DNA of 64,000 nucleotides from Thermoanaerobaculia bacterium (GCA_036399695.1 DASWMP010000322.1:8997-72996); one strand, 5' to 3'; positions 1 to 64,000 are shown, numbered from the stretch's first letter. The notes: generated by a model not told the origin, from the letters alone. Numbers and translations: made by a program.

Positions 1-1
1 G

Positions 2-1645
2 TCGACGCTTCGCAATCTGGCGCAGACGGCCGTCCCGGCACTCGCCGACTGGTGCACCGTCAACATGGCGACAAAGAGCGCGGACGGCACATACGAGAGG
101 CTCGCCATCGCTCATCTCGATGCCGAAAAGGCCGACCTCGCGTGGGAGATGTATCAAAAGTACACGCCCAACCGTCCTGTCGATCCGGTGGCACAGGCCA
201 TCCGCTCGGGCAAGTCGCAACTGGTGCGCGAGATCAACGACGACATGTTGCGAAACATGAGCGCTTCGGAGGATCACTACGCGGGCATGAAGCAGCTCGG
301 CCTCGTCTCATGGATGGTCGTGCCTCTCCCCGGCCGAAGGGGACCGCTCGGAGCCGTCACCTTCGCCTCTTCCGACTCGATGCGGCTGTTCACCGAGCTG
401 GACCTCTCATATGCCGAAGAGTTCGCGCGGCAGGCTGCCGTGGCGATCGAGAACGCGGTCTTGTACCGTGACGCCCAGGACGCCAACCGGGCCAAGGACG
501 ACTTCCTCGCCACTCTCTCGCACGAGCTTCGGACACCGATGACGGCCATTCTCGGCTGGTCGCGCGTCCTTGAAGAAGGAGGACTGGACGACGACACGTT
601 CGGCAGCGCCATCGAGTCGATCGTCCACAGCGCGCAGGCGCAGGCACTGCTCATCGAGGACGTGCTGGACATGTCGCGGATCATCGCCGGCAAGATGCAG
701 ATGGATCCGCAGCCGGTCGATCTCGCCGATGTCGTGCAGGCGGCCATCCGCACCGTGCAACCCGCTGCCGAGGCGAAGGGCGTGATCCTGGAGACGCAGC
801 GGCGTCCCGGCGCGTCGCTGGTGACCGGCGACCCGAACCGGCTCCAGCAGATCGTCTGGAACCTGCTGTCGAACGCGATCAAATTCACGCCGCGAGGCGG
901 TGAGGTGGTCGCACGGATCGAGCAATCAGGATCGTTCGTCCGGCTGACGGTGCGGGACAGCGGAAAGGGAATCAGGCCGGAGTTTCTGCCGCACGTTTTC
1001 GAGCCGTTCCGCCAGGCGGAAAACGTCACCACCCGCACCCATGGCGGCCTTGGGCTGGGGCTGGCCATCGCCCGCCAGCTCGTGGAACTGCATGGCGGCA
1101 ACATCTCCGCGCGAAGCGACGGCGAAGGGAAAGGGGCTGCGTTCGTCATCGAGCTTCCGATTCGCGCGGTGCGGACCATCGACCTCGCACAGCCGGCGTC
1201 CCTTGAACCATCGGCCAAACGGCGTCGCAACGCACAAACCGACGCGGCGTACCCTTCCCTCGCGGGCGTGCAGGTGCTGGTTGTGGACGATCAGGACGAT
1301 GCGCGCGTGCTGGTGAGGACGGTGCTGGCCCGTTGCGGCGCGGACGTCACGACAGCAGCGTCCGTCCGTGATGCGGTCGAACACCTCGAGGCTGGTGCGG
1401 CAGACATCATCGTCAGCGACATCGCCATGCCGGACGCCGATGGTTTCGAGCTGATCCGGCACATCCGCGAGTCGCGGATGCTGGCTACTCCGGTGATCGC
1501 GATGACCGCATTCGGTCATCCGAGCGATCAGGAGAAGATCCTGGCCGCGGGCTTCACCGGGTATCTCAAAAAACCGGTCGAGCCCGTCGACTTCGTGCGC
1601 GAACTGCATGCCGTGCTGCAGCGATCGCGCGGCGGGAGCACCTGA
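2..1645 (+). CDS. Hybrid sensor histidine kinase/response regulator (GAF, HisKA, HATPase_c, REC). The frame is open to the window edge, so the gene is probably 5'-truncated.
   Basis: ORF 65..1645 contains an H-box (LSHELRTPM), an ATP-lid region (GLGLAIARQLVELHGG) and a C-terminal receiver domain (VLVVDDQDD...DIAMPDADG). There is no stop codon between position 2 and 65. Confidence 0.85.
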   Translation, partial: STLRNLAQTAVPALADWCTVNMATKSADGTYERLAIAHLDAEKADLAWEMYQKYTPNRPVDPVAQAIRSGKSQLVREINDDMLRNMSASEDHYAGMKQLGLVSWMVVPLPGRRGPLGAVTFASSDSMRLFTELDLSYAEEFARQAAVAIENAVLYRDAQDANRAKDDFLATLSHELRTPMTAILGWSRVLEEGGLDDDTFGSAIESIVHSAQAQALLIEDVLDMSRIIAGKMQMDPQPVDLADVVQAAIRTVQPAAEAKGVILETQRRPGASLVTGDPNRLQQIVWNLLSNAIKFTPRGGEVVARIEQSGSFVRLTVRDSGKGIRPEFLPHVFEPFRQAENVTTRTHGGLGLGLAIARQLVELHGGNISARSDGEGKGAAFVIELPIRAVRTIDLAQPASLEPSAKRRRNAQTDAAYPSLAGVQVLVVDDQDDARVLVRTVLARCGADVTTAASVRDAVEHLEAGAADIIVSDIAMPDADGFELIRHIRESRMLATPVIAMTAFGHPSDQEKILAAGFTGYLKKPVEPVDFVRELHAVLQRSRGGST

Positions 1646-1812
1646 GCAGAACGGTAGCTTCGTTGCGGAAGGCAATCTCGGAGTGCGGTGGCGAGCTTCA
1701 TCCAGCCACCGCTCTGCTACAGGTGTAACAGAGCGGTGGCTACGGAGGCAAAATGCCGCCTCCTCCGGAGGGTGTCTCAAAACGGAGCGCACACACTCTG
1801 ATGGCCTAGAAA

Positions 1813-1946
1813 CCGGCGCCTGCGGGCGCAGACAGACAAGAGTGTCTGTCCCACATTGAATGCCAGTGTGCCCGCGGGTGCCCGATATTCGGCGGAATCT
1901 GAATGTGGGACAGACACTCCTGTCTGTCCGCGCCCGCAGGCGCCGG
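1813..1946. repeat. R1 REP-like element: two inverted 44-bp arms (core ATGTGGGACAGACACTCYTGTCTGTC) flanking a ~46-bp spacer.
   Basis: Arms at 1813-1856 and 1903-1946 are near-perfectly complementary. The same 26-bp core recurs at 18302, 26656/26730 and 40824. Confidence 0.85.
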
Positions 1947-2030
1947 TTCATCGGCGGCAGAACCAAGGGAGAGATCGAGGCGCACCGTTTTGAGACACCC
2001 TCCGTTCGCCACCGCACTCCGAGATTTAGC

Positions 2031-5013: not shown

Positions 5014-5052
5014 TCATTGGTCCTATTGGTCCCATAGGTCCCATCTGTCCCG
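5014..5052. repeat. R6 tandem 9-mer repeat (GGGACCWAT units, reverse orientation).
   Basis: cattggtcctattggtcccataggtcccatctgtccc. The same 9-mer family occurs at 14605, 22283, 42896 and 56901. Confidence 0.8.
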
Positions 5053-6975: not shown

Positions 6976-7082
6976 AGTTGTTGGTTGTTGGTTGTTGGTT
7001 TTTGGTGGGGCTGAGGACCTGCGCGGTTGTTGGTACCGCCCAGGGCGGCGGCACCAACAACCAAAAACCAACAACCAACAAC
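6976..7082. repeat. R3 MITE-like palindrome (TTGGTTGTTGG arms).
   Basis: gttgttggttgttggttgttggtttttggtgggg pairs with ccaccaacaaccaaaaaccaacaaccaacaac. Other copies sit at 36958 and 50921. Confidence 0.8.
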
Positions 7083-9347: not shown

Positions 9348-10342
9348 TGGGACGCGCGATCGCACTGCTGGGAAGTCTGATCACGAGTGCCTGCTGTACG
9401 TCTTTGCCGAAGCAGGCGGTGAAGGGCGTGGCGTTCCCCGCGGCCGACGCGATGGGACAGATGCGACCCGTGGGACCTTTGGGAAGCGGGGGCGCGGACG
9501 CATCCCTTAGGTCCGATGAGTCCCATCTGTCCGCTTCGACTGTCACGGAAGAGAGCTACGTCTGGCGCGATGAAAAGCGCAGCCGCGACGTGCCGGTGAA
9601 GCTGTATGTCCCCACGGCCAGCGACAGGCATCCGGTGGTGGTCTTCTCGCACGGCATCGGGGAGAACCGCGACTCGTACGCCTACCTGGGGCAGGCGCTG
9701 GCGCGGGCGGGCTTTCTCGCCGTTCACGTCACGCACGCCGGGACCGACAAGGCGGTGCTCGCGCACGGCTACCGCGCGCTCTACCGGCAGGTGAAGCAGC
9801 CGAAGAACTGGATCGCCCGTCCGTTGGACGTCAGCTTCGTCCTCGACCAGCTCGCGCGGCGCAAGGACGCGGACATGGATCGCGTCGCCGTGGCCGGTCA
9901 CTCAGCCGGCGCGTTCACCGCCTTCGCCCTCGCCGGGATGCGCACCGTGAACGGCGGCAACTTCCGGGACGAGCGGGTCAAGGTGGTAGTGCCGATGTCG
10001 ATGCCGCGCCTGGATCACATCGTGCCGGAAGGAGGCTACGCGACCATCACGACCCCCGTGCTGAACGTGACGGGGACGTGTGACACGTCGATCATCTACC
10101 GCACCTTTCCCCGTCACCGCCGCATCCCGTTCGAGCGGAGCCGCGGGCAGTTCCTCGTCACGATCGAGAGGGTGAATCACGACAGCTTCGTGCTCGACGA
10201 TCCGCGCCATGAGCTCATCGCGGACCTCGTCATCGCCTTCCTGCGCGGCTATCTGCTCGGCGATCCGGGTGCACGGGCGTGGTTCGAGGAGCCGGGGAAT
10301 GCCGAGCTCGTCGGCGTAAATCTTGCGGTGGAGCGGCGTTAG
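9344..10342 (+). CDS. Secreted alpha/beta hydrolase (PAF-acetylhydrolase / dienelactone-hydrolase-like).
   Basis: Signal peptide, then a GHSAG nucleophile elbow and an alpha/beta-hydrolase layout. Confidence 0.75.
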   Translation: MMGRAIALLGSLITSACCTSLPKQAVKGVAFPAADAMGQMRPVGPLGSGGADASLRSDESHLSASTVTEESYVWRDEKRSRDVPVKLYVPTASDRHPVVVFSHGIGENRDSYAYLGQALARAGFLAVHVTHAGTDKAVLAHGYRALYRQVKQPKNWIARPLDVSFVLDQLARRKDADMDRVAVAGHSAGAFTAFALAGMRTVNGGNFRDERVKVVVPMSMPRLDHIVPEGGYATITTPVLNVTGTCDTSIIYRTFPRHRRIPFERSRGQFLVTIERVNHDSFVLDDPRHELIADLVIAFLRGYLLGDPGARAWFEEPGNAELVGVNLAVERR

Positions 10343-12884: not shown

Positions 12885-12970
12885 AGTTGGCGGTTGGCAG
12901 TTGGCAGTGGAGTACCAAAATCGCGGAGCCATTTCCACTGCCAACCGCCAACTGCCAACCGCCAACTGTC
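12885..12970. repeat. R2 palindromic element (TTGGCGGTTGGCAGTTGGC arms).
   Basis: Inverted arms between two convergent genes. Other copies sit at 28401, 34731 and 43713. Confidence 0.85.
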
Positions 12971-14604: not shown

Positions 14605-14650
14605 GATGGGACCAATGGGACCTATAGGACGCATGGGACCTATAGGACGG
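14605..14650. repeat. R6 tandem 9-mer repeat.
   Basis: atgggaccaatgggacctataggacgcatgggacctataggacgg. Confidence 0.8.
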
Positions 14651-14757
14651 ACGCGGGCTGGATGGGCGCCAGTTCACCCCCCGAGGATACGACGATTCCG
14701 ATCTCCGAGTGCCGATTTACCGGAAACCGGATCTCGGAGACCGGAAATCGTCCTCCC

Positions 14758-16296: not shown

Positions 16297-16355
16297 GTGA
16301 GCTCCGATTTTCGATTCACGATTTCCGATTTCCTGGCGGCGCTGGTTTCGCGCCG

Positions 16356-17493: not shown

Positions 17494-17530
17494 CTGGGGC
17501 TCGGGGCTCAGGGCCCGCGGCTCGGTGGGG
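17494..17530. repeat. R9 G-tract element (GGGGCTCGGGGCTCAGGGCCC).
   Basis: Similar G-run elements occur at 55958-56015 and 59806-59850. Confidence 0.6.
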
Positions 17531-18301: not shown

Positions 18302-18327
18302 ATGTGGGACAGACACTCTTGTCTGTC
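18302..18327. repeat. R1 solo 26-bp palindromic unit.
   Basis: atgtgggacagacactcttgtctgtc. Confidence 0.8.
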
Positions 18328-22266: not shown

Positions 22267-22282
22267 TTTTTGCGGAGAACGA

Positions 22283-22368
22283 CGGGACCTATGGGACAGA
22301 TGGGACCAATGGGACAGATGAGAGTCTCATTGGTCCTCTCGGTCCCATAGGTCTCATCTGTCCCGACA
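22283..22368. repeat. R6 9-mer element in a palindromic (hairpin) arrangement.
   Basis: Direct 9-mers (gggacctatgggacagatgggaccaatgggacagatg) are followed by their reverse complement. Confidence 0.8.
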
Positions 22369-22935
22369 GACGTGCCAGACTTCAGTCTGAGGCCGTCACA
22401 CCTAAGTTCGAGGTCGCGGAACTTCTGTTTGAGGCCGCCGCATCTCTGTTTGAGGCCGCCGCATCTCAGTTTTGAGGTCGCCGCATCTCAGTTTTGAGGC
22501 CGCCGCATCTCAGTTTGAGGCCGCCGCATCTCAGTTTGAGACCGCCGCACCTCAGTTTTGAGGACGCCGCATCTCAGTTTGAGGCCGCCGCACCTCAGTT
22601 TTGAGGACGCCGCACCTCAGTTCGAGGCCGCCGCACCTCAGTTTTGAGGCCGCCGCATCTCAGTTTGAGGCCGCCGCACCTCAGCTTCGAGGTCGCCGCA
22701 CCTCAATTTGACGCCACCGAACTTCAGTTTCGAGGCCGCCGCACCCCAGTTTTGAGGTCGCCGCGCCGCAATTTAAGGCCGCCCCAGCTCAGTTTGAGGC
22801 CGCCTCATCTCGATTTGAGGCCGCCGCACCTCAGCTTCGAGATCGCCGCGCCTCAGTTTCGAGGGCGCCGCGCCTCAATTTCAGGTCGCCGCACCTCAAT
22901 TCGAGGTCGTCGCACCTTGTTTTGACATCGCTGAA
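22363..22935. repeat. Tandem array of about 27 contiguous 21/22-bp units (GAGGCCGCCGCATCTCAGTTT[T]). It is not a CRISPR.
   Basis: Units abut with no spacers and degenerate toward the right end. Each unit contains the short palindrome TGAG...CTCA. Confidence 0.9.
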
Positions 22936-26655: not shown

Positions 26656-26755
26656 ATGTGGGACAGACACTCCTGTCTGTCCGGCCCACCCCCGAGGTCC
26701 TCCAGACAAGCGGCCGTTCGGGTGCACCGGACAGACAAGAGTGTCTGTCCCACAT
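26656..26755. repeat. R1 element: two inverted 26-bp units around a 48-bp spacer.
   Basis: atgtgggacagacactcctgtctgtc ... gacagacaagagtgtctgtcccacat. Confidence 0.85.
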
Positions 26756-27907: not shown

Positions 27908-28396
27908 ATGCGTATGAAACGCAATCGGAATCTCACGATCGTGATGCTTGCCATCATGGCAGTCGGTCTTCTCGCAATGAGCGCCTGTAAGTCGAGCGGT
28001 ATGGCCGTGACGAGTCGCGGTCAGTTCCTCAAGCTGAGCATCGAGCACCCCAACGAACTCCCGGAAGCGGGTGAAGACAACCTCGACATCGTCGTCGCCA
28101 ATCGCGGCGTCAACAACATCCAGGACATCATGCTCGACGTCGAGCTGCCGCCGCAGCTCGTGGTCCTCGACCAGACCAACCCCCGTGGCATCAACGTGAC
28201 GCATGACCCGGGCACCAACGTGTACCACTTCACGTTCGGCAACGTGCAGCCGGCCGAAACCGCGACCATCCGCTTCCGCGTCCGTACCGCCTTCGGTACC
28301 TATCGCGAGAGCGGCAGCGTCCGCGCCACGGCCTGGCAGTCCGGCCTCCCCGGCGACAAGCTCGTTGAGACGGCCGTGATCAGGCTGCGCCAGTAA
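27908..28396 (+). CDS. Lipoprotein with a DUF11/CARDB-like beta-sandwich domain.
   Basis: AAGGAG RBS, signal peptide with a Cys (LLAMSAC), and repeat-domain-like motifs. Confidence 0.6.
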   Translation: MRMKRNRNLTIVMLAIMAVGLLAMSACKSSGMAVTSRGQFLKLSIEHPNELPEAGEDNLDIVVANRGVNNIQDIMLDVELPPQLVVLDQTNPRGINVTHDPGTNVYHFTFGNVQPAETATIRFRVRTAFGTYRESGSVRATAWQSGLPGDKLVETAVIRLRQ

Positions 28397-28400
28397 CGTA

Positions 28401-28500
28401 GTTGGCGGTTGGCAGTTGGCGGTTGGCAGTAAAGATTGGCGGTAGGTATGTGGCGCCGGCGGGTTCTCCTGCCTACCGCCAACTGCCTGCCGCCAACTGC
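28401..28500. repeat. R2 palindromic element.
   Basis: gttggcggttggcagttggcggttggcag ... ctaccgccaactgcctgccgccaactgc. Confidence 0.85.
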
Positions 28501-28548
28501 TTTCCGGCATCTCCATTGCAATTAATAACTGTATTGAAAGGAGATCTG

Positions 28549-28742: not shown

Positions 28743-28774
28743 AAAAGAGGCGCCGCGAGGCGCCTCTTTTGTTT
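28743..28774. terminator. Bidirectional intrinsic terminator.
   Basis: aaaagaggcgcc-gcga-ggcgcctctttt: a perfect 8-bp GC stem with a 4-nt loop, flanked by an A-tract and a T-tract, between convergent genes. Confidence 0.75.
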
Positions 28775-28810
28775 AACAACCAACAACCAATCAACCGCGC
28801 AGCGCCGCGG

Positions 28811-31412: not shown

Positions 31413-31515
31413 GAAGTCAGAACGCAGAACGCAGAACGCAGAACGTTGAATGAGGAGCTGAGCCGTCGTTAGAGTTCTGCATTCTGCGTTCTGCGTTCCG
31501 CGTTCTGACTTCGGG
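31413..31515. repeat. R5 palindromic element (CAGAACGCAGAACGCAGAAC arms).
   Basis: A second copy sits at 62637-62721. Confidence 0.8.
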
Positions 31516-31529
31516 TTTCTGTGCTCCCA

Positions 31530-32314: not shown

Positions 32315-32531
32315 CGCTGCTGTGTAGGTATCCCGAAGAGAGACCGGACGGGGGCGCCTCCGGCGGGCGGCCACGGGCCGCAGCGCTGGTTGGCGAAGCC
32401 GCCGTCGACCCTACTTGCTAACGTGTTAACTGCGATGCCGTGCGCCGAGCCTGAGGCAACAAGCGCTGCGGCCCGTGGCCGCCCGCCGGAGGCGCCCCCG
32501 TGGTTTCTCTTCGGATACCTACACAGCAGCG
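32315..32531. mobile_element. R7 MITE-like element, about 217 bp, with long terminal inverted repeats.
   Basis: Inner TIR GGCGCCTCCGGCGGGCGGCCACGGGCCGCAGCGCTGGTTGGC, plus outer self-complementary ends gctgctgtgtaggtatcccgaagagaga ... tctcttcggatacctacacagcagc. Other copies sit at 47831 and 53787. Confidence 0.8.
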
Positions 32532-34703: not shown

Positions 34704-34730
34704 CCCGCGCCGAAGTGTACCAGCGGAGGC

Positions 34731-34830
34731 AGTTGGCGGTTGGCAGTTGGCGGTTGGCAGTGGACAAAGCAAGGAACCGGTGCTCGGCCGGTGCCGGCGC
34801 CTCATCCACAGCCAACCGCCAACTGCCAAC
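34731..34830. repeat. R2 palindromic element in a divergent intergenic region.
   Basis: agttggcggttggcagttggcggttggcag ... cagccaaccgccaactgccaac. Confidence 0.85.
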
Positions 34831-36175: not shown

Positions 36176-36951
36176 GTAAGCCCCGCCCGGACGGACGCGC
36201 AGCCGACGAGCTGCGTCCCGTCGTGTTCCGTACGAACTTCACCAAGCACGCCGAAGGGTCGGTGCTGATCGAGATGGGGGACACGAAGGTCCTCTGCACC
36301 GCCTCCGTGCAGGAGAAGGTGCCGCCGTTCCTCTACCGCAGCGGCAAGGGCTGGGTCACGGCCGAATACGGCATGCTCCCGCGCGCCACGACGGACCGCG
36401 TCGAGCGCGAAGCCGCGCGCGGCAAGCAGGGCGGCCGCACGATGGAGATCCAGCGCCTCATCGGCCGCTCCCTCCGAACCGCCGTCAACCCGGAGATGCT
36501 CGGCGAACGGACGATCTGGCTCGACTGCGACGTCATCCAGGCCGACGGCGGCACCCGCACCGCGTCGATCACCGGCGCCTATGTGGCGCTCGTGACCGCG
36601 CTCGGGCGGCTGTACGTCGACGGCAACCTGCAGAGCTGGCCGGTCGTGGACTTCGTGGCCGCGATCTCGGTCGGGATCGTCGGCGGCGTGCCGTCGCTCG
36701 ATCTGAACTACGCCGAGGATTCGAAAGCCGGCGTCGACATGAACGTCGTGGCCACCGGCAAGGGGCGCTTCGTCGAGCTCCAGGGCACCGCCGAAGGAGC
36801 CACCTTCAGCGACGAGGAAATGACGTCGATGGTCACCCTGGCCAAAGGCGGCATCGCCCAGCTCGTGGAGAAGCAGAAGGAAGTGCTGGCGCCGATTCTG
36901 ACGCGCGTGGATCAGTTGGCGCGCGAACGGTTGAATCGGAAGTTTCGGTAG
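36172..36951 (+). CDS. rph: Ribonuclease PH.
   Basis: [13 protein letters not shown]...[18 protein letters not shown] and the RNase PH fold throughout. Confidence 0.95.
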
Positions 36952-36957
36952 GGGCAG

Positions 36958-37062
36958 TTGTCGGTTTTTGGTTGTTGGTTTTTGGTGGGCTCCGCTGTTC
37001 GGTGGGATCCGCCGGTTTCCGCCGCGGGTCACACCAAAAACCGAAAACCAAACCCCAAAAAC
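36958..37062. repeat. R3 MITE-like palindrome.
   Basis: ggtttttggttgttggtttttggtggg ... cacaccaaaaaccgaaaaccaaaccccaaaaacc. Confidence 0.8.
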
Positions 37063-37073
37063 CGCCCCGCGCG

Positions 37074-40089: not shown

Positions 40090-42308
40090 GCGGCGACGGC
40101 GACAGCCGTTAGAAAGCCGATCAACACGCCGACCCGGAAGCTCCAGGGCGCGTAATCCACCACCACCTCCCGGCTCCCGGCCGGCACGTCGAAGCCCACG
40201 AACGCGCCGTCCACTTTCACCACGTCAAAGCCCTTCGCGCGCCAGCCGGGGTAGAAGGGGATGCTGCTGACGATACGCGCCGGTTTCGAGGCGTCGATGC
40301 GGAGGCGGTAGCGGGTGCCGCGCTTGGCGATGATGCGCACGTTCGCGTCATCGGAGAAGAACCGCGGTTTGGCGGTGGCGTTTTCGTAGATGCGGCCGTC
40401 GGGGCCGTCGTAGAGGAGGCGGTGTTTCGGCAGGTCGCGGGCCGGTTCGGTGAGGATCCAGCGGACGTTGAGGCGGTCGAGCGCGGGCGAATCGGGCTCA
40501 TTCCACTTGGCGAAGTACTCCTTCGTTTCGTACGACGAATGGGCGCGCAGCCAGGCGATGGCGGCGGCGCTGGCCATCGGGTCGTGCTGGCGGAGGTCGT
40601 CGACGCCGAAGAGGACGTGCGCGTTCGGGAACAGCACCGGCCCGAGGCCGACGACGCGATACGGGCCGGGAGCCTCGTCCACGAGCTTCTGCAGCGCGCC
40701 CGTCATGAGCGTGCCGGGATAAGCCTCGGACGCCGGGACGACGGGGTTCCAGTCGCGCATGGCGAACCAGAGCTCGAAGAGCATGGCCGCGATGAGAAAC
40801 ACCGGGAAGACGGTCTGCTTCTGATGTGGGACAGACACTCTTGTCTGTCCGCCGATCAAAGCCACGAGCAGCACGACGCCGCTCGGCACCAGCACGCGCA
40901 CATCCATCGGCGGCACCTGCAGCACGACGAACGCCCCGACCGCCGCCGCGAACAGCACACCGACGCCGCTGCCCAAGCGGCTCCGGTAATGCAGCAGGGC
41001 GGCGATCTGCATCGCCCCGAAGAAGCAGAACAGCAGCCGCAGGCGCGGGTTCATGATGGCGCCGACGATGCCGGCATACGGCGGCTCTCCCGGCGCCGAG
41101 CCGTTGAGAAACGCGAACGTGACGGCCATGGCCACGACGAAGAACAGCTCCACGGAACGCCAGGCCCGGCGGCGGATGACGTCCACGAGCACCCCGGCCC
41201 AGGCGGCGATGGCCAGCACGCCGGCGAAGCCGCCGAGCGTCTCCGCCGGCATCCCCAGCCCTCGCCCGAAGTAGCGCGGATGAAGCATCGGCGCGAGCGA
41301 GCGGAGATCGGAGTACGGCATGCCGAGGTACGCGTGCCCCTGCAACTCGGCGAAGCGATGCGAGCGTGTGGCGGCTTCGTAGAAAGGGAGCAGCAGCGGC
41401 GCCGCGAGCAGCGCCGCGCCGATCATTGCGAGGAGGATCGACGCAACGAACCGCCCGCGCTGAAGATCAGGAACCGTGATGATCAGCCACAGCGCGTACG
41501 CGCCCGCGCCGAGTGCGATGAGCGTGAGGCTTTCCGGGTGACCGCCAAAGGCGATCAGCGCGCCGAGGATGGCGCTCAGGGCGATGGCCTTGCGGCGGGA
41601 GCCGCCCCCCGCCACCGAATCGACTGCCAGCAGCACCACCGGCAGCCAGCACACCGTGCTGGCAATGGCGAAGTGCAGCCACACGACCACGAACGAGCAG
41701 AACCCGAACGCCACCGCGCCGGCCACGCTCGGCAGCTCCCCGTACCCGCGGCGACGGCAGAACAGATACATCCCCGTCAACGCCACGAGCAGCTTCATCG
41801 CGGCTTCGGCGGCGATGGACGGCCCGAGGGGCAGCGGCAGCGCGAGCAGCCGGAACGGCGAGAGCGCGGCACTCTGCGCGTTCGCCAACAGCGGATACCC
41901 GAGCCCGGCGCGCTCGTTCCAGAGCGGCACGTCCAGCGCGCGCCACGACTCCCGCACCTGATGCGCCCACGGCACCGTCTGCATCGGCAGATCGTGGATC
42001 TCGAAGTTCGAAACCCCGAACTTATCCAGCGCCCCATACGCCGACCAGGGCGGCAGCAGCCGGATCACGTCCACCGGATAGTTGACGACGTTCGCCACCA
42101 GCGGACGCCAGAGGAACGCCAGCACCAGCAGGTAGAAGAGGGCGGCGATGCGCCAGGGAACGAGAGGACGTTGTTCGTTGTCCGTTGTCCGTTGTCCGTG
42201 CTCCGCTGCACGATGGTCACGGCGGAGCGCAGCGCGGACAACGGAAAACGAACAACGGGCAACGACGATCCCGTACACCACGAGCACCAGCAGCCACGCG
42301 AGGTTCAT
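40059..42308 (-). CDS. YfhO-family polytopic membrane protein, paralogue 2, carrying two in-frame repeat insertions.
   Basis: Colinear with the gene at 37074..39515. Start taken at MNLAW (42308), which overlaps the tyrA stop (ATGA). The Arg-rich upstream part of the long ORF was ignored. Confidence 0.75.
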   Translation of the reverse strand: MNLAWLLVLVVYGIVVARCSFSVVRAALRRDHRAAEHGQRTTDNEQRPLVPWRIAALFYLLVLAFLWRPLVANVVNYPVDVIRLLPPWSAYGALDKFGVSNFEIHDLPMQTVPWAHQVRESWRALDVPLWNERAGLGYPLLANAQSAALSPFRLLALPLPLGPSIAAEAAMKLLVALTGMYLFCRRRGYGELPSVAGAVAFGFCSFVVVWLHFAIASTVCWLPVVLLAVDSVAGGGSRRKAIALSAILGALIAFGGHPESLTLIALGAGAYALWLIITVPDLQRGRFVASILLAMIGAALLAAPLLLPFYEAATRSHRFAELQGHAYLGMPYSDLRSLAPMLHPRYFGRGLGMPAETLGGFAGVLAIAAWAGVLVDVIRRRAWRSVELFFVVAMAVTFAFLNGSAPGEPPYAGIVGAIMNPRLRLLFCFFGAMQIAALLHYRSRLGSGVGVLFAAAVGAFVVLQVPPMDVRVLVPSGVVLLVALIGGQTRVSVPHQKQTVFPVFLIAAMLFELWFAMRDWNPVVPASEAYPGTLMTGALQKLVDEAPGPYRVVGLGPVLFPNAHVLFGVDDLRQHDPMASAAAIAWLRAHSSYETKEYFAKWNEPDSPALDRLNVRWILTEPARDLPKHRLLYDGPDGRIYENATAKPRFFSDDANVRIIAKRGTRYRLRIDASKPARIVSSIPFYPGWRAKGFDVVKVDGAFVGFDVPAGSREVVVDYAPWSFRVGVLIGFLTAVAVAAQLRARQETV
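40824..40849. repeat. R1 26-bp unit inside the YfhO paralogue 2 coding sequence, in-frame.
   Basis: atgtgggacagacactcttgtctgtc is translated as GQTRVSVPH, a segment absent from paralogue 1. Confidence 0.8.
42165..42262. repeat. R4 palindromic element (CGTTGTCCGTTG arms) inside the N-terminal coding region of YfhO paralogue 2.
   Basis: cgttgttcgttgtccgttgtccgttgtccg ... cggacaacggaaaacgaacaacgggcaacg. The same motif forms the outer arms of the R3 copy at 50921. Confidence 0.75.
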
Positions 42309-43141
42309 AGGGCGTCGTAGAGTTTGCGGGCCTGGTCGTAGGCGGCGACGTCGCCGTCGATGATGGCGCGGACGAGCTTGGCCAGTTCTTCCGCGTGCCG
42401 CGCGAGTTGCTCGCGGTTCGCGGCGACGATCGGGGCCCAGACGCTGCCGTCGCTGCCGGCCAGGCGGAGGAACGTGCGCAGGCCGCTGCCGGCGAACCGG
42501 AGCTGGTCCTCGTCGAGGTAAGCGGCGAGGGCGGTGGAGAGGATCTGCGGCAGATGGCTCGTCAGGGCGACGCCGGCGTCGTGCTCGCGCGCGTCGACGC
42601 GGTCGCGGATCGCGCCGCACGCGTCGATCATCGAGTCGACGAGCGGGTCGTCGGCGTCGACGAACCAGCGGTGGTTCTCGAACAGATCTGCGCGCGCCGC
42701 CGCGAGGCCGCGCTCCTGCGAGCCGGCCATCGGGTGACCGGCGATGAAGCGTGTGGTGGCGGCGTCGCGCAGCGGGGCCATGACGCTGCACACGGAGGTC
42801 ACGGTGGCGGGGGTGCGCAGGGTGCGCAGGATGCGCACCGCGATATCCACCGGGGTGGCCAGGATGATCAGATCCGGTGGGGGACCGGGGGAGACGATGG
42901 GACCAATGGGACCAATAGGACCGATGGGACTAATGCCTTCGGGTGGGCTCCCATTGGTCCCATCTGTCCCATAGGTCCCATCGTCCCTTGTGGACCACCG
43001 CTCATCCGCCGCCTCCGCCCCCCGCGCGGCCTCCGGGCTCACCTGCGGGTCCACGAACGCCACCCGCCAGCCGCTTGCGCGGAGGCGGATGCCGATCGAG
43101 CCGCCGATCAGGCCGAGGCCGGCGATGAGGACGCGGGGCAT
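42305..43141 (-). CDS. tyrA: Prephenate/arogenate dehydrogenase with an in-frame repeat-encoded insert.
   Basis: Rossmann start VLIAGLGLIGGS, the TyrA core, and a 33-aa GT/GPIGPIGPI insert encoded by the R6 repeat. Confidence 0.85.
   Translation of the reverse strand: MPRVLIAGLGLIGGSIGIRLRASGWRVAFVDPQVSPEAARGAEAADERWSTRDDGTYGTDGTNGSPPEGISPIGPIGPIGPIVSPGPPPDLIILATPVDIAVRILRTLRTPATVTSVCSVMAPLRDAATTRFIAGHPMAGSQERGLAAARADLFENHRWFVDADDPLVDSMIDACGAIRDRVDAREHDAGVALTSHLPQILSTALAAYLDEDQLRFAGSGLRTFLRLAGSDGSVWAPIVAANREQLARHAEELAKLVRAIIDGDVAAYDQARKLYDAL
42896..42988. repeat. R6 9-mer palindromic element lying in-frame inside tyrA.
   Basis: gatgggaccaatgggaccaataggaccgatgggac...cccattggtcccatctgtcccataggtccc. 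Confidence 0.8.
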
Positions 43142-43712: not shown

Positions 43713-43788
43713 AGTTGGCGGTTGGCAGTTGGCGGTGGCCTTGACGATGGTTGACTCCCGCCAACTGCCAACCGCCAACTGCCAACAG
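43713..43788. repeat. R2 palindromic element.
   Basis: cagttggcggttggcagttggcgg ... ccgccaactgccaaccgccaactgccaac. Confidence 0.85.
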
Positions 43789-43803
43789 CCTTTGCGGCGC
43801 GGA

Positions 43804-44148: not shown

Positions 44149-44272
44149 AGTTAACCCTGAGCGAAGCGAAGGGTCAATGGAGCCTCAGCGACGGCGCAGA
44201 CCATCGACGCATTGCGTGGCAGAGGCCGTCGCTGAGGCTCCATTGATCCTTCGCTTCGCTCAGGATTAAACC
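44149..44272. repeat. R8 palindromic element (CCTGAGCGAAGCGAAGGGTCAATGGAGCCTCAGCGAC arms).
   Basis: Its right end, caggattaaac, supplies the TAA stop codon of the epimerase gene. Confidence 0.85.
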
Positions 44273-44670: not shown

Positions 44671-44797
44671 CAACCCTGAGCGAAGCGAAGGGTCAATGGA
44701 GCCTCAGCGAGGTGGTCAACCACCGGCGCATTGCATGGCGAGGGTCGTAGCTGAGGCTCCATTGATCCTTCGTCGCTTCGCTCCTCAGGATTAACTC
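44671..44797. repeat. R8 palindromic element.
   Basis: Its right end supplies the TAA stop of deoA. Confidence 0.85.
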
Positions 44798-46189: not shown

Positions 46190-46495
46190 AATCGCTCGAC
46201 GAGCACCCGCGATCGGTGGCCCGTCACCAGGAATCAGTCATCGATCACCGGGAATCGGTGGCCGATCGCCGAAAATCGGGCATCGATGACTGATTTCCCA
46301 CGGATCGTGACCGGAATTCAGTCGCGCGTCACCGAAATTCAGTCACGCGTGACCGAAATTCGGTGGCCGGCGTCGGGAAATCGGTCGCTGGCCCCCGAAA
46401 ATCACTCGTCGATCACGGAAAATCAGTCATCGATCACGGAAAATCAGTGATCGATCACCGAAAATCACTCACCACCGGCCACGACCTACCCCAGC
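46190..46495. repeat. Tandem array of about 12 degenerate 21-bp units (consensus CACCGAAAATCAGTCATCGAT) upstream of queC.
   Basis: Units occur head-to-tail in both orientations. The last three are near-identical. Confidence 0.85.
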
Positions 46496-46510
46496 TAAAC
46501 TCCCGCCGCC

Positions 46511-47819: not shown

Positions 47820-47830
47820 CTCGGTGCACC

Positions 47831-48004
47831 GGGAGGAGACGACCGGGGCGCCTCCGGCGGGCGGGCACGGCCCGCGGCGTTTGTTGCCTCAGGCTCGGCG
47901 TACCGCGTCGCGATCAACACGTTCGTAAGTAGGGTCGACTGCGGCTTGGCCAACCAGCGCCGCGGGCCGTGCCCGCCCGCCGGAGGCGCTCTCGTCGGCT
48001 CCCC
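47831..48004. mobile_element. R7 MITE-like element, opposite orientation to the copy at 32315.
   Basis: TIRs ggggcgcctccggcgggcgggcacggcccgc ... gcgggccgtgcccgcccgccggaggcgc. Confidence 0.8.
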
Positions 48005-50850: not shown

Positions 50851-50920
50851 TTCCCGCGATCAAAATTTGTGGTTTGCATGGAGTGCCGCTCTGAAGGGGG
50901 CGGCACTTTTGTTTGTGGCG

Positions 50921-51087
50921 CGTTGTTCGTTGCCCGTTGCCCGTTGCCCGTGTTTCAGGTTGTTGGTTTTCGGTTGTTGGTTGTTGGTGCTCCGCTCGGT
51001 TTTACCAACAACCAACAACCAACAACCAAAAACCGGCCCCAACGGACAACGGACAACGTGCAACGTGCAACGTGCAACGGACAACGC
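50921..51087. repeat. Composite R3 element with outer R4-type arms (CGTTGCCCGTTG / CAACGGACAACG).
   Basis: cgttgcccgttgcccgtg...ggttgttggttgttgg...ccaacaaccaacaacc...caacggacaacggacaacgtgcaacg. Confidence 0.8.
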
Positions 51088-51107: not shown

Positions 51108-52016
51108 ATGACTGCCCCCCGCCTCCCCGAGTGGATCCGCGAAAAGAAACTCAATCTCTCGCAGCTTCGGGACATCAAGACGATGTTCCGGGAGCGCGAT
51201 CTGCACTCGGTGTGTGAGTCGCTGGCCTGCCCGAACCGCTCCGAATGTTTCTCCCGCGGCACCGCGACGTTCATGATCCTCGGCGATGTCTGTACGCGCG
51301 CCTGCGGCTTCTGCAACGTGACCACGGGGCTGCCGTACGCGCCGCCGTCGCCGGGCGAGCCGCGCGCGGTCGCGGAGACGGCGCAACGCATGGGGCTGCG
51401 GCATGTGGTCGTGACCTCGGTGACGCGCGACGATCTGCCGGACGGCGGCGCGCAGCAGTTCGCCGAAACGATCCGCGAGCTGCGCAAGTTGCTGCCCCAC
51501 GTCGCCGTCGAGGTGCTGACCCCCGACTTCCGCGGCAATCTCGAAGCGGTCCGCACCGTCGCCGCCGCCCGTCCCGATTACTACAACCACAACGTCGAGA
51601 CGGTCCCTCGCCTGTATCGTCACGTCCGTCCCGGTTCCCGCTTCGAACGCTCCCTGGAAGTGTTGCGCGAGGCGAAGAAGACCGCCGGCACGGTCACAAA
51701 GTCCGGCCTCATGCTCGGCCTCGGCGAAACACGCGAGGAGGTCGTCGAGGTGCTGCACCGGCTCAAGGAGTCGGAGGTGGCGATCGTCACGATCGGCCAG
51801 TACCTGCAGCCGAAACGGCACAAGCTCGACGTCGTGGAGTACGTGCATCCGACGGTCTTCGAGGAGTACCGGGAGATCGGTGAGTCGCTCGGTTTCCGGG
51901 CGGTGTTCTCCGGGCCGTTCGTCCGCAGCTCGTACATGGCGGACGTGGTTGCCGCGCACTCCAATCCTGAGGAGCGAAGCGATCGAAGGATCAATGGAGC
52001 CTCAGCGACGATCTGA
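51108..52016 (+). CDS. lipA: Lipoyl synthase. The C-terminal 17 or so residues are encoded by an R8 repeat.
   Basis: CPNRSEC and CTRACGFC cluster motifs and a radical-SAM core. Confidence 0.95.
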   Translation: MTAPRLPEWIREKKLNLSQLRDIKTMFRERDLHSVCESLACPNRSECFSRGTATFMILGDVCTRACGFCNVTTGLPYAPPSPGEPRAVAETAQRMGLRHVVVTSVTRDDLPDGGAQQFAETIRELRKLLPHVAVEVLTPDFRGNLEAVRTVAAARPDYYNHNVETVPRLYRHVRPGSRFERSLEVLREAKKTAGTVTKSGLMLGLGETREEVVEVLHRLKESEVAIVTIGQYLQPKRHKLDVVEYVHPTVFEEYREIGESLGFRAVFSGPFVRSSYMADVVAAHSNPEERSDRRINGASATI

Positions 52017-52062
52017 GCTTCATAGCTGAGGCTCCATAGACCCTTCGCGGCGCTCAGGGTTC
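51964..52062. repeat. R8 palindromic element overlapping the 3' end of lipA.
   Basis: cctgaggagcgaagcgatcgaaggatcaatggagcctcagcgac ... gctgaggctccatagacccttcgcggcgctcagg. Confidence 0.8.
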
Positions 52063-52076
52063 ACTGCCACTGCCGA

Positions 52077-53786: not shown

Positions 53787-53963
53787 GGGGAGAGGACCGA
53801 CCAGGGGCCTCCGGCGGGCGGCCACGGGCCGCAGCGCTGGTTGGCCGAGCCGCAGTCGACCCTACTTACTAAGGTGTTGACCGCGACAACCACCGCGCAG
53901 CCTATGGCAACAAGCGCTGCGGCCCGTGGCCGCCCGCCGGAGGCCCCTCGGTCGTCTTCCCCC
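53787..53963. mobile_element. R7 MITE-like element.
   Basis: ggggagaggaccgaccaggggcctccggcgggcggccacgggccgcagcgctggttggc ... gccgcccgccggaggcccctcggtcgtcttcccc. Confidence 0.8.
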
Positions 53964-55957: not shown

Positions 55958-56015
55958 GGCTTGGGGATCGGGGCTTGGGGCTCAGGGCCCGGATGGGGGC
56001 CGGGGCCCGGGTCCC
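55958..56015. repeat. R9 G-tract element with at least five G3-5 runs on the + strand.
   Basis: ggggatcggggcttggggctcagggcccggatgggggccggggcccggg. Confidence 0.6.
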
Positions 56016-56121
56016 CGGGAACCTGACCGCTGGCCCTGCGCCCCGGGCGCCGATCCCCGGGCCCTCCTGTGAACTACGTCACAGAACGGTCCCGGGTTGC
56101 GGGCGGCGTAAGATCGCGTCG

Positions 56122-56904
56122 ATGCTCGAGTACCGTCCGCGTCCGTCGTACGTCCGTCTGGCGCTCGTCAGTTTCTCGCAATTCGTGATCGCCACCTGGC
56201 TCGTGGCGCTGGTCATCGGGACGATCGACTCGATCCTGGTGCGCGCGTACGACGGCGGGACAGTGCTGTACGCCGCGCCGTGGGACACGCTGCATCGGGA
56301 GGACGCCGGCATCGCCGCCTGGGTGGCGTACGCCTTCTGCGCGTTTGCGCTCGTGCTGCTCTTATTGTGGTCGAGCGGCCGCACGCTCCGCGGACGCCAC
56401 TTCCATTTCGTGCTGGCACACAGCGTGGCCGTCTTCGGCGCGATCCGCTTCGGCCTCCGCGGCGATCTCGGCGACGACCTCCCGCTCCTCGGCGCGCTCG
56501 GCCTGGCGGTAATCGTGGTGATCCTCGCCGAGTCCCGCTCCCTGGCCCTGCTCGGTAACGTCTACGACCTCGGCTTCGGCGGACGCCTGGCCCTCTGGGC
56601 CGTGCGGATGCTCCCGGTAGGCGCCCTCTTCGCCTGGTTCCACCCCGTGCTCATGGCCGTGCTCCTGGGTGTCACCCTGCTCATGGACCTCCTCCCGGCG
56701 CGCACCCGCTTCGAGCAGGTCACGGAGCCGGAGATGCCGGGGAACACGACGATTTTCGTCGCCGCGGCTCTCATCCTGACGCTTTCAGTGGCGGCATTCG
56801 GCTTCATGGAGGCCCAGGCCGTGGTGGTGCAGGACGGTAAGGCATCACGAGTCCCGGTGGATTTTCTGCGGGAGCGGTTCATCCAGGGAGCGGGGCGCCG
56901 ATAG
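56122..56904 (+). CDS. Hypothetical polytopic membrane protein.
   Basis: 260 aa with 6-7 hydrophobic helices and GC3 bias. Confidence 0.5.
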   Translation: MLEYRPRPSYVRLALVSFSQFVIATWLVALVIGTIDSILVRAYDGGTVLYAAPWDTLHREDAGIAAWVAYAFCAFALVLLLLWSSGRTLRGRHFHFVLAHSVAVFGAIRFGLRGDLGDDLPLLGALGLAVIVVILAESRSLALLGNVYDLGFGGRLALWAVRMLPVGALFAWFHPVLMAVLLGVTLLMDLLPARTRFEQVTEPEMPGNTTIFVAAALILTLSVAAFGFMEAQAVVVQDGKASRVPVDFLRERFIQGAGRR

Positions 56905-56945
56905 GACCCATGGGACGAATGGGACCTATGGGACCTATGGGACTA
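56901..56945. repeat. R6 tandem 9-mer repeat.
   Basis: gataggacccatgggacgaatgggacctatgggacctatgggac. Confidence 0.8.
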
Positions 56946-56967
56946 CGCGGCGCCGGTGAGTTGGGCG

Positions 56968-59805: not shown

Positions 59806-59850
59806 TGGCGTTCGGGGCTCGGGGCCCTGAGCCCGGAGCCCGGAGGGGGT
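59806..59850. repeat. R9 G-tract element.
   Basis: ggggctcggggccctgagcccggagcccggaggggg. Confidence 0.55.
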
Positions 59851-62636: not shown

Positions 62637-62721
62637 ACCCGAATGCAGAACGCAGAACGCAGAACGACGAATGAATGACCGGTCTCCTTTCTCCATTTTG
62701 CGTTCTGCGTTGTGCATTCGG
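62637..62721. repeat. R5 palindromic element.
   Basis: cccgaatgcagaacgcagaacgcagaacg ... cgttctgcgttgtgcattcggg. Confidence 0.8.
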
Positions 62722-62744
62722 GTACGAGGTGCCGGGTAGATCGT

Positions 62745-63776
62745 TCACTCTCTAACGACACTCATTAACACTGCCAGCGCCTTCCTCACGTAACTCGGAT
62801 GCGGCACATCTCCGAGCCGCGCCACATCCACCCACGCGTACTCGCCATCTCCATCGCGAATGACTTTAGCAATGGTGGCCGCGTAGACCTCGAACTCGAT
62901 CTTCCGCGTGGTCACGGCGTGCTTGAACGTGCCGAGGAGCTCCTTCGAGAGCACGCGCAACGGGCGGCCGGAGAGCAGGGACGTATCGCCGTGGGGCAGG
63001 TGGAACATCGACGTCATCAGCGGGCCGGATTCGCGGCGGAGCAGCACGCGGCCGGTGGCGTCGCGGATGACGTAGAGGGGGATGCGCAGGCTGCGCGTCT
63101 CCTGCTTTTCTTTTTTCACGGGGAGCTCGTCGATGCGGCGGGTGGCGCGGGCGACGCAGACGTCGTTCACGGGGCACATGGGGCAGAGGGGATTGCGCGG
63201 CTTGCAGATCAGCGCGCCGGTTTCCATCAGCCCCTGGTTGAAGTTGCGCGGTTCGTTGGAGGCCTGCACGAGGGCGTCGGCGTGCGTCCAGAACCGCGGC
63301 GAGCCGACGGGGGCGTCGACGCCGAAGAGGCGGGCCACGATGCGCGTGACGTTGCCGTCGACGATCGGCGCTTTGGTCCCATAGGCGATGGAGGCGACGG
63401 CGCCGGCGGTGTAGCGGCCGATGCCGGGTATGGTCAGCAGCTCCTCGACGGTCGAGGGAACGCGTCCGCCGAAGCGTTGCTGGACGTCGATCGCTCCCTC
63501 GCGGAGCATGCGTGCGCGGCGGTAGTAGCCGAGGCCGGACCAGGCGGAGGTGACGTCGTCTTCGGAAGCGGCGGCGAGGGCGGTGAGAGTGGGGAAGCGC
63601 TCGATGAAGCGCCCGAAGTAGCCGAGCACGACCTCGAGCCTGGTCTGCTGGGCCATGACCTCGGAGACCCAGACGTGGTACGGATCGTACGTGTTGCGCC
63701 AGGGGAGGGAACGCTGGTGGCGAGCGAACCACGATTCGATGTTGCGGGCAATGGAACTGAGGTCGGGAGCTGGCAA
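62745..63776 (-). CDS. mutY: A/G-specific adenine DNA glycosylase.
   Basis: HhH-GPD domain, a 4Fe-4S motif (C-x6-C-x2-C-x5-C: CKPRNPLCPMCPVNDVC) and a NUDIX-like C-terminal domain. The TTG start is approximate. Confidence 0.88.
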   Translation of the reverse strand: MPAPDLSSIARNIESWFARHQRSLPWRNTYDPYHVWVSEVMAQQTRLEVVLGYFGRFIERFPTLTALAAASEDDVTSAWSGLGYYRRARMLREGAIDVQQRFGGRVPSTVEELLTIPGIGRYTAGAVASIAYGTKAPIVDGNVTRIVARLFGVDAPVGSPRFWTHADALVQASNEPRNFNQGLMETGALICKPRNPLCPMCPVNDVCVARATRRIDELPVKKEKQETRSLRIPLYVIRDATGRVLLRRESGPLMTSMFHLPHGDTSLLSGRPLRVLSKELLGTFKHAVTTRKIEFEVYAATIAKVIRDGDGEYAWVDVARLGDVPHPSYVRKALAVLMSVVRE

Positions 63777-63818
63777 CCAGCTTGTATTGTATGCTTTCGG
63801 GTCAGTCGAGGAGCCGAT

Positions 63819-64000
63819 GTGAGCGAACAGGTCCAATCCACCCACTCGGATGCAGAGCAGGGCAAGTACGTGTACTGCATCATCAAGACGGAACAGCCGA
63901 AGGACTTCGGCTCGGTCGGCATCGGCGGCCGCGGCGACCGCGTCTATACCGTCCATTACAAAGAATTTGGCGCGGTCGTATCGAACTGCCCGCTGATCGT
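63819..64000 (+). CDS. gvpF: Gas vesicle protein GvpF/GvpL N-terminus, truncated by the window end.
   Basis: GAGGAG lies 6 nt before GTG 63819. KYVYCIIK...GSVGIGG...RVYTVHYKEFGAVVS matches the conserved GvpF/L N-terminal signature (LYxYGII...VYTVxYxxLxAVVS). Confidence 0.7.
   Translation, partial: MSEQVQSTHSDAEQGKYVYCIIKTEQPKDFGSVGIGGRGDRVYTVHYKEFGAVVSNCPLI

Follow-up and report, generated by a model that had tools for sequence, protein, structure and literature searches.

Palindromic DNA lies in most of the gaps between genes of a 64,000-nucleotide stretch from a Thermoanaerobaculia bacterium (GCA_036399695.1, DASWMP010000322.1:8997-72996), here called the window. A first-pass annotation had sorted this DNA into nine unrelated short repeat families, R1 to R9, accompanied by two 21-bp tandem arrays. 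We find three kinds of palindromic DNA and not nine independent ones: R1, a classical repetitive extragenic palindrome (REP) by sequence criteria; one class of hairpins made of short tandem units, which takes in R2 to R6 and R9; and R7 and R8, which look like conventional miniature inverted-repeat transposable elements (MITEs), with terminal inverted repeats and conserved interiors. The explanation that we favour, at a probability of about 60%, is that R1 is a REP, that the tandem-unit hairpins are gene-less elements resembling the intervening sequences (IVSs) of 23S rRNA, and that R7 and R8 are old MITE-like palindromes.

The repeats themselves are real. Motif matches were compared with those in dinucleotide shuffles, arrays were called with TRF and hairpins with an inverted-repeat scan. 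All nine motifs recur where almost no matches are expected in the shuffles, and both tandem arrays are confirmed. R1 has six sites; R2 has 15 overlapping matches at four loci and R3 15 matches at four loci; R4 has 11 matches at two loci, with a weak third, and R5 11 at two; R6 has 21 matches at five loci and a sixth at 9455-9532; R7 forms three elements, R8 two full copies and one partial copy, and R9 occurs at three loci. Together the elements amount to about 3.7 kb, some 6% of the window, and about 29 of the 34 intergenic gaps of at least 40 nt (~85%) hold one, so that the earlier statement that nearly every gap is occupied stands. This count follows the correction of over-long calls of open reading frames (ORFs), several of which had been extended through hairpins; homology to DnaJ begins only at residue 69 of its ORF, and homology to YfhO at residue 50. 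Most elements are intergenic, as had been reported, but at least two copies lie in frame within coding sequences (CDSs), R6 at 42893-42985 and R1 at 40824-40849. The earlier list holds as far as it goes, but it missed an R6-type hairpin (9455-9532), two further elements (14690-14750 and 16303-16333) and a partial copy of R8 (51963-52067).

The tandem-unit hairpins

R2, R3, R4, R5, R6 and R9, together with the two unlisted elements, form one architectural class, and the description of the families as unrelated does not hold for them. In the common plan of R2 to R6 and R9, a left arm of three to seven tandem units is followed by a loop of 15-50 nt and by a right arm of the same units inverted. 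The unit is a heptamer in R2 (GTTGGCR), R3 (GTTGTTG), R4 (CGTTGYC), R5 (CAGAACG) and R9 (GGGGCTC), and a nonamer in R6 (GGGACCWAT). The hairpins are 60-180 nt long, with arms of 21-47 nt that are 77-97% complementary in the inverted-repeat scan. Their predicted RNA folds are near-perfect stems of 25-45 bp (-43 to -69 kcal/mol; z-scores from -5.5 to -10.2); across all palindromic elements tested, z ranges from -5.5 to -13.6. A GTT/AAC core is common to the R2 to R5 units, a likeness for which homology is not established.

Copies within one family have the same arms, unrelated loops and different numbers of units, and no target-site duplications were seen at the copies of R2 to R6 and R9. Elements with these properties do not look like MITEs that move by cutting or copying. 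The composite described earlier, in which an R3 copy has R4-type outer arms (50909-51086), is as reported, and it sits after the terminator of the CarD gene and before a radical-SAM gene. Only R3 and R4 were seen nested in this way, and the other families occur separately, so that a single composite origin of all families was rejected.

One R6 hairpin is in frame with the prephenate dehydrogenase gene in which it lies. It is translated as ...DGTYGTDGTNG...GPIGPIGPIGPI..., with (GPI)n and DGT/YGT repeats, since an insert built of nonamers is translated as repeated tripeptides, and the roughly 34 residues that derive from it are missing from the orthologue in the relative L007.

Intrinsic terminators were considered and rejected as an identity for these elements, which are big hairpins without a T tail; the window has 15 terminator-like sites against 10.7 ± 3.0 in shuffles, which is no enrichment. 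An Rfam scan of the window gave no match at the gathering threshold. The matches below it are to miRNA-precursor models only, which long hairpins attract, and were dismissed as spurious, so a known structured RNA was rejected as well. R9 has three to four G-runs (GGGGCTCGGGGCTCAGGG...; 17496-17530 and 55958-55990) and could form a G-quadruplex on its G-rich strand. Between an R2 hairpin and the single arm of R3 lies a 52-codon ORF (MRIQETNEILKESRYTRHG...) followed by a canonical terminator (28549-28705).

Same plan, different units in relatives

About 50 syntenic loci with 77-86% protein identity were fetched by way of a thymidine phosphorylase (deoA) anchor, and about 30 unrelated loci were added. 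In 414 kb from the relatives, none of the R2 to R9 motif sequences occurs. A scan for period-7 arrays that is blind to their sequence finds 18.8 arrays per 100 kb in the window and 18.5 in the relatives, against 1.9 in the unrelated loci, which served as an outgroup, and 0.3 in the shuffled window. In the relatives 57 of 88 are inverted pairs, built from 40 distinct units, and in the unrelated loci none is; the 4 of 12 that the strict scan pairs in the window are an undercount, because of 14-nt alternations. The tandem-heptamer hairpin design is thus clade-wide, while its unit sequence is species-specific and fast-evolving.

The spacer between the CarD and radical-SAM genes shows the design at a single site. 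An intrinsic terminator is conserved there in all genomes compared, upstream of any hairpin, and the flanking genes place these genomes at roughly equal distances from one another (78-84% nucleotide identity). Five units other than those of the window were counted in hairpins of the relatives at this spacer. Behind the terminator lies, in the window, the R4/R3 composite; L008 carries (GTTGCGA)n there, L009, L010 and L042 have (AATTGAA)n with loops that differ, L020 has a loop-less (GGTTGTC)n palindrome and L030 has (GCAGATG)n; L007, L021, L024 and L026 have no hairpin. L009 and L042, whose flanking genes are about 82% identical, have identical hairpin arms and diverged loops.

Heptamer hairpins could in principle be immobile: host regulatory structures such as processing sites, insulators or protein-binding arrays, which arise and lengthen where they are through slippage during replication and hairpin-templated repair, and which selection retains at particular spacers. 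Growth in place would suit the finding of hairpins with different units in the same spacers, the conserved arms and freely varying loops of L009 and L042, the variation in unit number with the two arms co-varying, and the precise placement of hairpins, which follow a terminator or a stop codon and precede the start codon of the next gene. It does not suit the presence of the same 7- or 14-nt unit at two to five unlinked loci of one genome, the presence and absence of hairpins among equally related genomes, the copies in frame within CDSs or the nesting of one family in another, and we regard it as quite improbable.

What the hairpins may be is suggested by a gene that lies between such arms elsewhere. 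Thirteen relatives carry a four-helix-bundle gene between inverted heptamer arms (L006, L008, L018, L027, L033, L034, L036, L039, L049, L054 and L086-L088), in the deoA-deoB spacer in all but L006, where it is at another site. In order, the deoA stop codon is followed by (GATGAAC)n or a variant, the last unit of which supplies the ATG of a 116-120-residue ORF, and then by inverted (GTTCATC)n up to the deoB start. The product matches PF05635 ("23S rRNA-intervening sequence protein", 1.6e-18), TIGR02436 ("four helix bundle protein", 2e-25) and PDB 2RLD (6e-26), and the PF05635/TIGR02436 family includes Avd, an accessory protein of diversity-generating retroelements (PMC10053308). Units differ by lineage (GATGAAC, GATGAAG, GATGAGG/GCTGAGG or GATGAGC), and both arms of each cassette agree: complementarity is 19.8 of 21 positions within a cassette and 17.4 of 21 between arms of different cassettes. 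A variant unit in one arm sometimes has its counterpart at the position with which it pairs in the other (L054, for example). Because paired arms change together, they appear to evolve in concert under selection for pairing.

Gene-less hairpins with the unit of a cassette occur elsewhere in the same genomes. The queE/queC spacer of L033, L039, L045 and L018 holds a solo hairpin that has the unit of the genome's own cassette and retains the ATGAAT of the ORF start, and L088 has complete small hairpins on either side of its four-helix-bundle gene. In other relatives the deoA-deoB spacer is empty, or it holds a heptamer hairpin without a gene or a gene for a BrnT toxin.

The arrangement extends beyond the Acidobacteriota. 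Bacteroides homologues of PDB 2RLD lie within the ara and aro operons, at araD/araA and aminotransferase/DAHP synthase junctions, flanked by (AATTGAC)4 and (GTCAATT)4 in arms of 31-47 nt that are 89-97% complementary; the arms reach the ATG of the ORF on one side and end just before the next gene on the other (L089 2436-2926, L092 2471-2949, L095 2457-2941). The tandem-heptamer arm architecture therefore flanks a four-helix-bundle gene in two phyla, Acidobacteriota and Bacteroidota. In L089 a complete gene-less mini-hairpin lies just upstream of the gene.

Because arms of the same kind flank the four-helix-bundle gene in relatives and in Bacteroides, we infer that the hairpins of the window are gene-less, solo-stem members of an IVS-like class whose arms, in relatives, enclose a gene of the S23p/Avd family. 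If transcribed, they would form near-perfect double-stranded RNA stems of 25-45 bp, which, by analogy with IVSs and REPs, may serve as RNase III processing sites or as structures that protect 3' ends between cistrons. A bolder proposal, which we offer tentatively, is that heptamer-armed hairpins are the cis ends of a widespread class of selfish cassettes around the pentameric S23p/Avd protein, in which an arm of some four to five heptamers would bind the protein ring, rRNA IVSs would be a special case and gene-less hairpins would be non-autonomous elements served in trans.

Several side observations concern the loci compared. In many relatives (L007, L011-L014, L016, L019, L023-L026, L029, L042-L044, L046 and L047) the deoA stop codon is overlapped by a gene for a BrnT-type toxin (PF04365; the L012 copy matches at 3e-18), and the spacer after deoA is a hotspot for small selfish genes. 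A conserved CCCTATAAT-like box 7-15 nt upstream of the deoB start in L033 (8150-8170), L057, L037, L041 and L038 suggests a promoter for a leaderless or very short-leader mRNA. L061, from an unrelated organism of low GC (37%), shows another repeat design: direct arrays of (AGAGTTG)n and of (AATGACG)n are linked through a conserved spacer, GGGTTCGCTGTCGCTCACA, in a unit that is itself repeated many times (50-570, 5758-5797, 8389-8478 and 8935-9092).

R1, R7, R8 and the setting of the window

R1 has the layout ATGT-GG-GACAGACA-CTCY-TGTCTGTC-C, in which a head of GTGG precedes a stem of 9 bp with a loop of 4 nt. Six exact copies occur at four loci in 64 kb, and two of these loci are inverted doublets, at 1831/1903 and 26656/26730, the one with heads inward and the other with heads outward; doublet spacers are about 5-50 nt. 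R1 thus has what defines a REP, a short palindrome in many copies with a GTAG-type tag and inverted doublets, whereas R2 to R9 have no such tag and are not REPs. The element is also not confined to the window. The exact 26-mer recurs in a Thermoanaerobaculia metagenome-assembled genome (MAG), where two contigs carry it in tight doublets with 5 nt between the copies, and in another MAG, which is labelled Verrucomicrobia; all four copies in the relative L024 have a compensatory stem variant, GCACAGACA/TGTCTGTGC, with GTGG retained. GTGG lies directly 5' of the stem in all copies of R1 and is kept in L003, L005 and L024, which have doublets too. In the MAG loci R1 is intergenic, beside genes for LexA, HTH, GGDEF, glycosyltransferase, SLT, UvrD and BrkB proteins.

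Since R1 meets the sequence definition of a REP, a REP-associated tyrosine transposase (RAYT) is expected elsewhere in the genome, and R1 is presumably copied by a single enzyme of this type. None is encoded in the 64 kb of this genome that were available, no RAYT gene adjoins R1 in the MAG loci, and none was found in 975 kb of fetched loci with an E. coli RayT query. The R1 copy inside the YfhO-like gene falls in a loop of this membrane protein at which homologues are 4-8 residues shorter. Both doublets are central in palindromes of about 240-260 nt that are 70-75% self-complementary (1766-2004 and 26581-26823), and the outer arms around them are locus-specific and mutually unrelated; they may stem from nested insertion, into palindromes that were already there, or from an inverted duplication of local sequence.

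R7 is a palindrome of about 170-200 nt with arms of about 54 nt and a 64-nt centre, and its copies are 82-86% identical over 161-181 nt, interior included. R8 is a palindrome of about 120 nt whose copies are 84% identical, with a conserved loop. At their ends, neither the three copies of R7 nor the two of R8 show a visible direct repeat. Their divergence points to old and not recent activity, as do short R7- and R8-like fragments in the relatives L011, L021, L007 and L016. As a separate observation, the window (44674-48002) has queE-queC-deoA in the opposite orientation to that in all syntenic relatives, an inversion that breaks the deoA-deoB junction. The breakpoints coincide with R8 at 44674-44790 and R7 at 47835-48002; as these are different elements, the inversion is not simple recombination between the copies now present.

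The first-pass annotation had concluded that several active or recently active mobilisation systems are at work. A full version of this idea, in which the nine are independent MITE or REP families and each has a RAYT or insertion-sequence transposase of its own that is encoded elsewhere and mobilises it in trans, draws on the identical arms at unlinked loci, on the fit of R1 to the definition of a REP, on the terminal inverted repeats and conserved interiors of R7 and R8, and on the documented existence of genomes with several REP families (PMC3733652). We consider it unlikely. R2 to R6 and R9 share one repeat-unit architecture, with unrelated loops and no target-site duplications within a family; relatives have other units in the same spacers; the only gene recurrently enclosed by the arms encodes a four-helix-bundle protein and not a transposase; and no transposase is encoded in the window, nor did the RAYT query find one in the 975 kb of relatives. 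The earlier interpretation is thus partly supported, but with one class in place of six families and with old copies of R7 and R8, several active systems are not shown, and a separate mobilisation system is unsupported for most families.

The IVS-like reading has its own difficulties. No four-helix-bundle gene was found in the window by tblastn or by a hidden Markov model search of all ORFs, and no R2 to R6 arms were seen around such a gene, so the link between window and cassettes rests on shared architecture and on the relatives. Most heptamer hairpins of the relatives also lack the gene, which may therefore be a passenger in hairpins and not their source. The 14-nt alternation GTTGGCG GTTGGCA at four unlinked loci calls for a copying mechanism that has no candidate. 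For R1, exact copies in MAGs of 54-60% GC, including the one labelled Verrucomicrobia, are spread more widely than is usual for one REP family. All of these points weigh against our reading. A possible remnant of a four-helix-bundle gene in an R5 loop ("...RR-stop", 31460-31472) was rejected as too short to count.

The two 21-bp arrays are tandem repeats separate from the hairpin classes, with no counterpart in any relative compared and no match to a known family. The array at 22388-22931 is non-coding, has no spacers and, with a fold z of -0.13, was rejected as a structured RNA. In the array at 46212-46471 every unit forms a small palindrome centred on GAAAATC, and the array fills the divergent deoA/queC spacer, which is only about 22-25 nt in several relatives. 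CRISPR was rejected for both, as units run head to tail without spacers.

The window is ordinary chromosome of a soil Acidobacteriota bacterium. It has 65.7% GC, a strong signal of GC at third codon positions (GC3) and dense housekeeping genes, among them those for a two-component kinase, ABC transporters, OmpA/OmpW, an amidase, EPSP synthase, RNase PH, two YfhO-like proteins, prephenate dehydrogenase, queC/queE, deoA/deoB, CarD, XerC and MutY. Homologues of its proteins are labelled Thermoanaerobaculia bacterium or Acidobacteriota bacterium, and the related contigs come from soil and rhizosphere metagenomes. The window has no transposase, RAYT, integrase or reverse transcriptase gene (a Pfam search of essentially all genes returned housekeeping families only), no phage gene, and no tRNA, tmRNA or rRNA. 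The XerC-like gene was rejected as a mobility gene, being syntenic in all relatives. A DUF433/DUF5615 pair between the two YfhO-like genes (39548-40089) is probably a toxin-antitoxin system, judging from Pfam marks of the metagenome gene calls.

Palindromes disturb assemblers, and a contig from a metagenome could be chimeric. The contig is present in two assemblies, ENA ERZ27253094 k141_157316 (65 kb) and JGI 3300034139 Ga0334956_000134. The JGI contig stops inside the R2 hairpin at about 34.8 kb, where its final ~60 bases differ from ENA (window 34792-34849 = L001 21256-21313), an indication that this palindrome breaks assemblies. Elsewhere the two are identical at every base over 21.2 kb, a stretch with 15 elements, and show no strain polymorphism apart from the contig end; gene order is the same as in more than 40 related contigs, and equivalent hairpins occur in independent assemblies, NCBI MAGs included. 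An artefact thus has a very slight chance of accounting for the elements, which are collected in Table 1.

Table 1. Repeat elements of the window (I1 to I25, inverted-repeat scan; energies and z-scores, predicted folds)
Position	Strand	Element	Evidence
1804..1955		R1 REP doublet, heads inward, centre of palindrome ~1766-2004	I1, 54-nt arms, 91%; self-inverse match 258 nt at 70%; fold z -8.7
5015..5051	-	R6 single arm, tandem nonamers (GGGACCWAT)	motif match, TRF
6977..7082		R3 hairpin, arms (GTTGTTG)4, between convergent genes	I17, 31 nt, 94%; z -6.7
9455..9532		R6-type nonamer hairpin, absent from earlier list	I20
12885..12968		R2 hairpin, arms (GTTGGCR)3-4, between convergent genes	-52.5 kcal/mol, z -8.3
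14606..14649	+	R6 single arm	motif match, TRF
14690..14750		Unlisted period-7 element (TCCGAKY / ACCGGAA units)	TRF
16303..16333	+	Unlisted period-7 array (TCCGATT x4.4), between FtsX permease and ABC ATPase genes	TRF
17496..17525	+	R9 G-rich period-7 array (GGGGCTC)	motif match, TRF
18302..18327	+	R1 single REP (GTGG + GGACAGACA-CTCT-TGTCTGTCC hairpin)	motif match
22281..22358		R6 nonamer hairpin, directly upstream of 21/22-bp array	I16
22388..22931	+	Tandem array, ~25 units of 21/22 bp (TGAGGCCGCCGCAYCTCAGTT[T])	TRF period 43 x12.4, score 606
26656..26755		R1 REP doublet, heads outward, in palindrome 26581-26823	motif match; I10, I14
28395..28503		R2 hairpin, directly after stop codon of gene 27908-28396	I13
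28773..28796	-	R3 single arm, adjoins canonical terminator hairpin	motif match, TRF
31413..31519		R5 hairpin, arms (CAGAACG)4 / (GTTCTGC)5, between two minus-strand genes	I6, I8; -62.6 kcal/mol, z -10.2
32339..32510	+	R7 copy	I2
34728..34830		R2 hairpin, divergent spacer of DnaJ-like and NTP-transferase genes	I25; z -7.0
36951..37068		R3 hairpin (GTTKTYG units), between convergent RNase PH and YfhO genes	I7
40824..40849	+	R1 single, in frame within YfhO-like CDS (CDS on minus strand)	encodes ...GGQTRVSVPHQ...
42169..42264		R4 hairpin, arms (CGTTGTC)4, between prephenate dehydrogenase stop and conserved YfhO2 start	I11; z -7.6
42893..42985		R6 nonamer hairpin, in frame within prephenate dehydrogenase	I12; -69.1 kcal/mol, z -8.9
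43714..43792		R2 hairpin, between two minus-strand genes	motif match
44151..44269		R8 palindrome, 45-nt arms, 96% complementary	I5; -95.8 kcal/mol, z -13.6
44674..44790		R8 copy, one inversion breakpoint, between glyoxalase gene and deoA	copy comparison
46212..46471	+	Tandem array, ~12 units of 21 bp in phase, one of them inverted (consensus ~TCAnCGATCACCGAAAATCAG)	TRF, I9
47835..48002	-	R7 copy, inverted, other breakpoint of queE-queC-deoA inversion	I4
50909..51086		Composite nested hairpin: outer R4-type (CGTTGCC / CAACGGA, CAACGTG), inner R3-type (GGTTGTT / ACCAACA)	I18
51963..52067		R8 partial/degenerate copy, overlaps 3' end of radical-SAM ORF	copy comparison
53788..53963	+	R7 copy	I3
55958..56063		R9 period-7 hairpin, 32-nt arms, 81% complementary	I24
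56903..56947	+	R6 single arm at stop of ORF 55975-56904	motif match, TRF
59807..59845		R9 short period-7 hairpin	motif match, TRF
62637..62723		R5 hairpin	I15

Known systems

Dense loads of REPs and MITEs are already known, and repeat richness alone is ordinary. What is new is that most of the "families" are one architecture common to a clade of soil Acidobacteriota while the units turn over, and that the same architecture surrounds an S23p/Avd-family gene in Acidobacteriota and Bacteroidota, with heptamers accompanying the gene in the Coxiella IVS as well. If the link is real, it provides a concrete cis-element for a very abundant four-helix-bundle family and would explain the intergenic heptamer arrays of Geobacter, cyanobacteria and Beggiatoaceae; if the selfish-cassette proposal were true, the long-orphan TIGR02436 family would gain a function and IVSs an origin. 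On the practical side, such hairpins break metagenome assemblies and inflate ORF calls.

REP and REPIN elements are associated with RAYT (TnpA-REP) transposases (PMC3116915, PMC3733652, PMC8266576). REPs have a GTAG-type tag (GTGG in Opitutus terrae), stems of 6-9 bp and several families per genome, form head-to-head or tail-to-tail dimers with spacers of 20-100 bp, and include in-frame intragenic copies (PMC3733652). R1 is like them in its GTRG-type head, 9-bp stem, 4-nt loop, inverted doublets, mostly extragenic placement and lineage-specific compensatory variants, and unlike a typical REP in that one exact 26-mer spans MAGs of such different GC content (54-66%) and its doublets lie within larger locus-specific palindromes. 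The R1 sequence has no match in PMC3733652, text and supplements included, nor in the rest of the literature searched. In-frame insertion into housekeeping genes, with extra peptide loops, recalls for R6 and R1 the Rickettsia palindromic elements and the intragenic REPs of Opitutus terrae (PMC3733652), but the sequence families differ and the R6 insert consists of nonamers read as tripeptide repeats. R7 and R8 are like Correia, ERIC and Nezha MITEs in being intergenic elements of 120-200 nt with terminal inverted repeats, conserved interiors and several copies; they differ in having no visible target-site duplication and no known parent insertion sequence, and in copies that are 82-86% alike.

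The 23S IVS of Coxiella has a 28-bp terminal stem and an S23p ORF, and RNase III excises it, as has been demonstrated for Coxiella alone; its ATG is preceded by two or three GACAGAT heptamers in tandem, a number that varies between strains (PMC4990558); in the literature searched this is the only paper that connects heptamers with an S23p-family protein. The tandem-unit hairpins are like the IVSs of Coxiella and Leptospira in their terminal stems of ~28 bp or longer and in the existence of gene-less versions, and the relatives and Bacteroides add a PF05635/TIGR02436 ORF in the loop with variable numbers of heptamers abutting its start. They are unlike them in that both arms consist wholly of tandem heptamers, that window copies have no ORF, and that they lie between genes or within operons, and once in a protein-coding gene, in a window without rRNA.

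Intergenic heptamers have been described several times: in Geobacter metallireducens as GGGACCG x4 and hairpin-paired MTYCTGA x5 sites (PMC2700814) and in Beggiatoaceae, Cyanobacteria and Bacteroidetes as TAACTGA repeats (PMC4679880), in both cases with no mechanism given, and in Xanthomonas and Nostoc as G-rich repeats of the G-quadruplex (G4) type (PMC4692102). With these and the cyanobacterial short tandemly repeated repetitive (STRR) sequences our elements share arrays of three to six units, a frequent position near start codons, occasional intragenic copies and lineage-specific units. In none of these papers are the arrays connected with a four-helix-bundle gene. Those arrays are mostly direct, whereas the elements described here are mainly inverted pairs, with long perfect stems and many types of unit in each genome.

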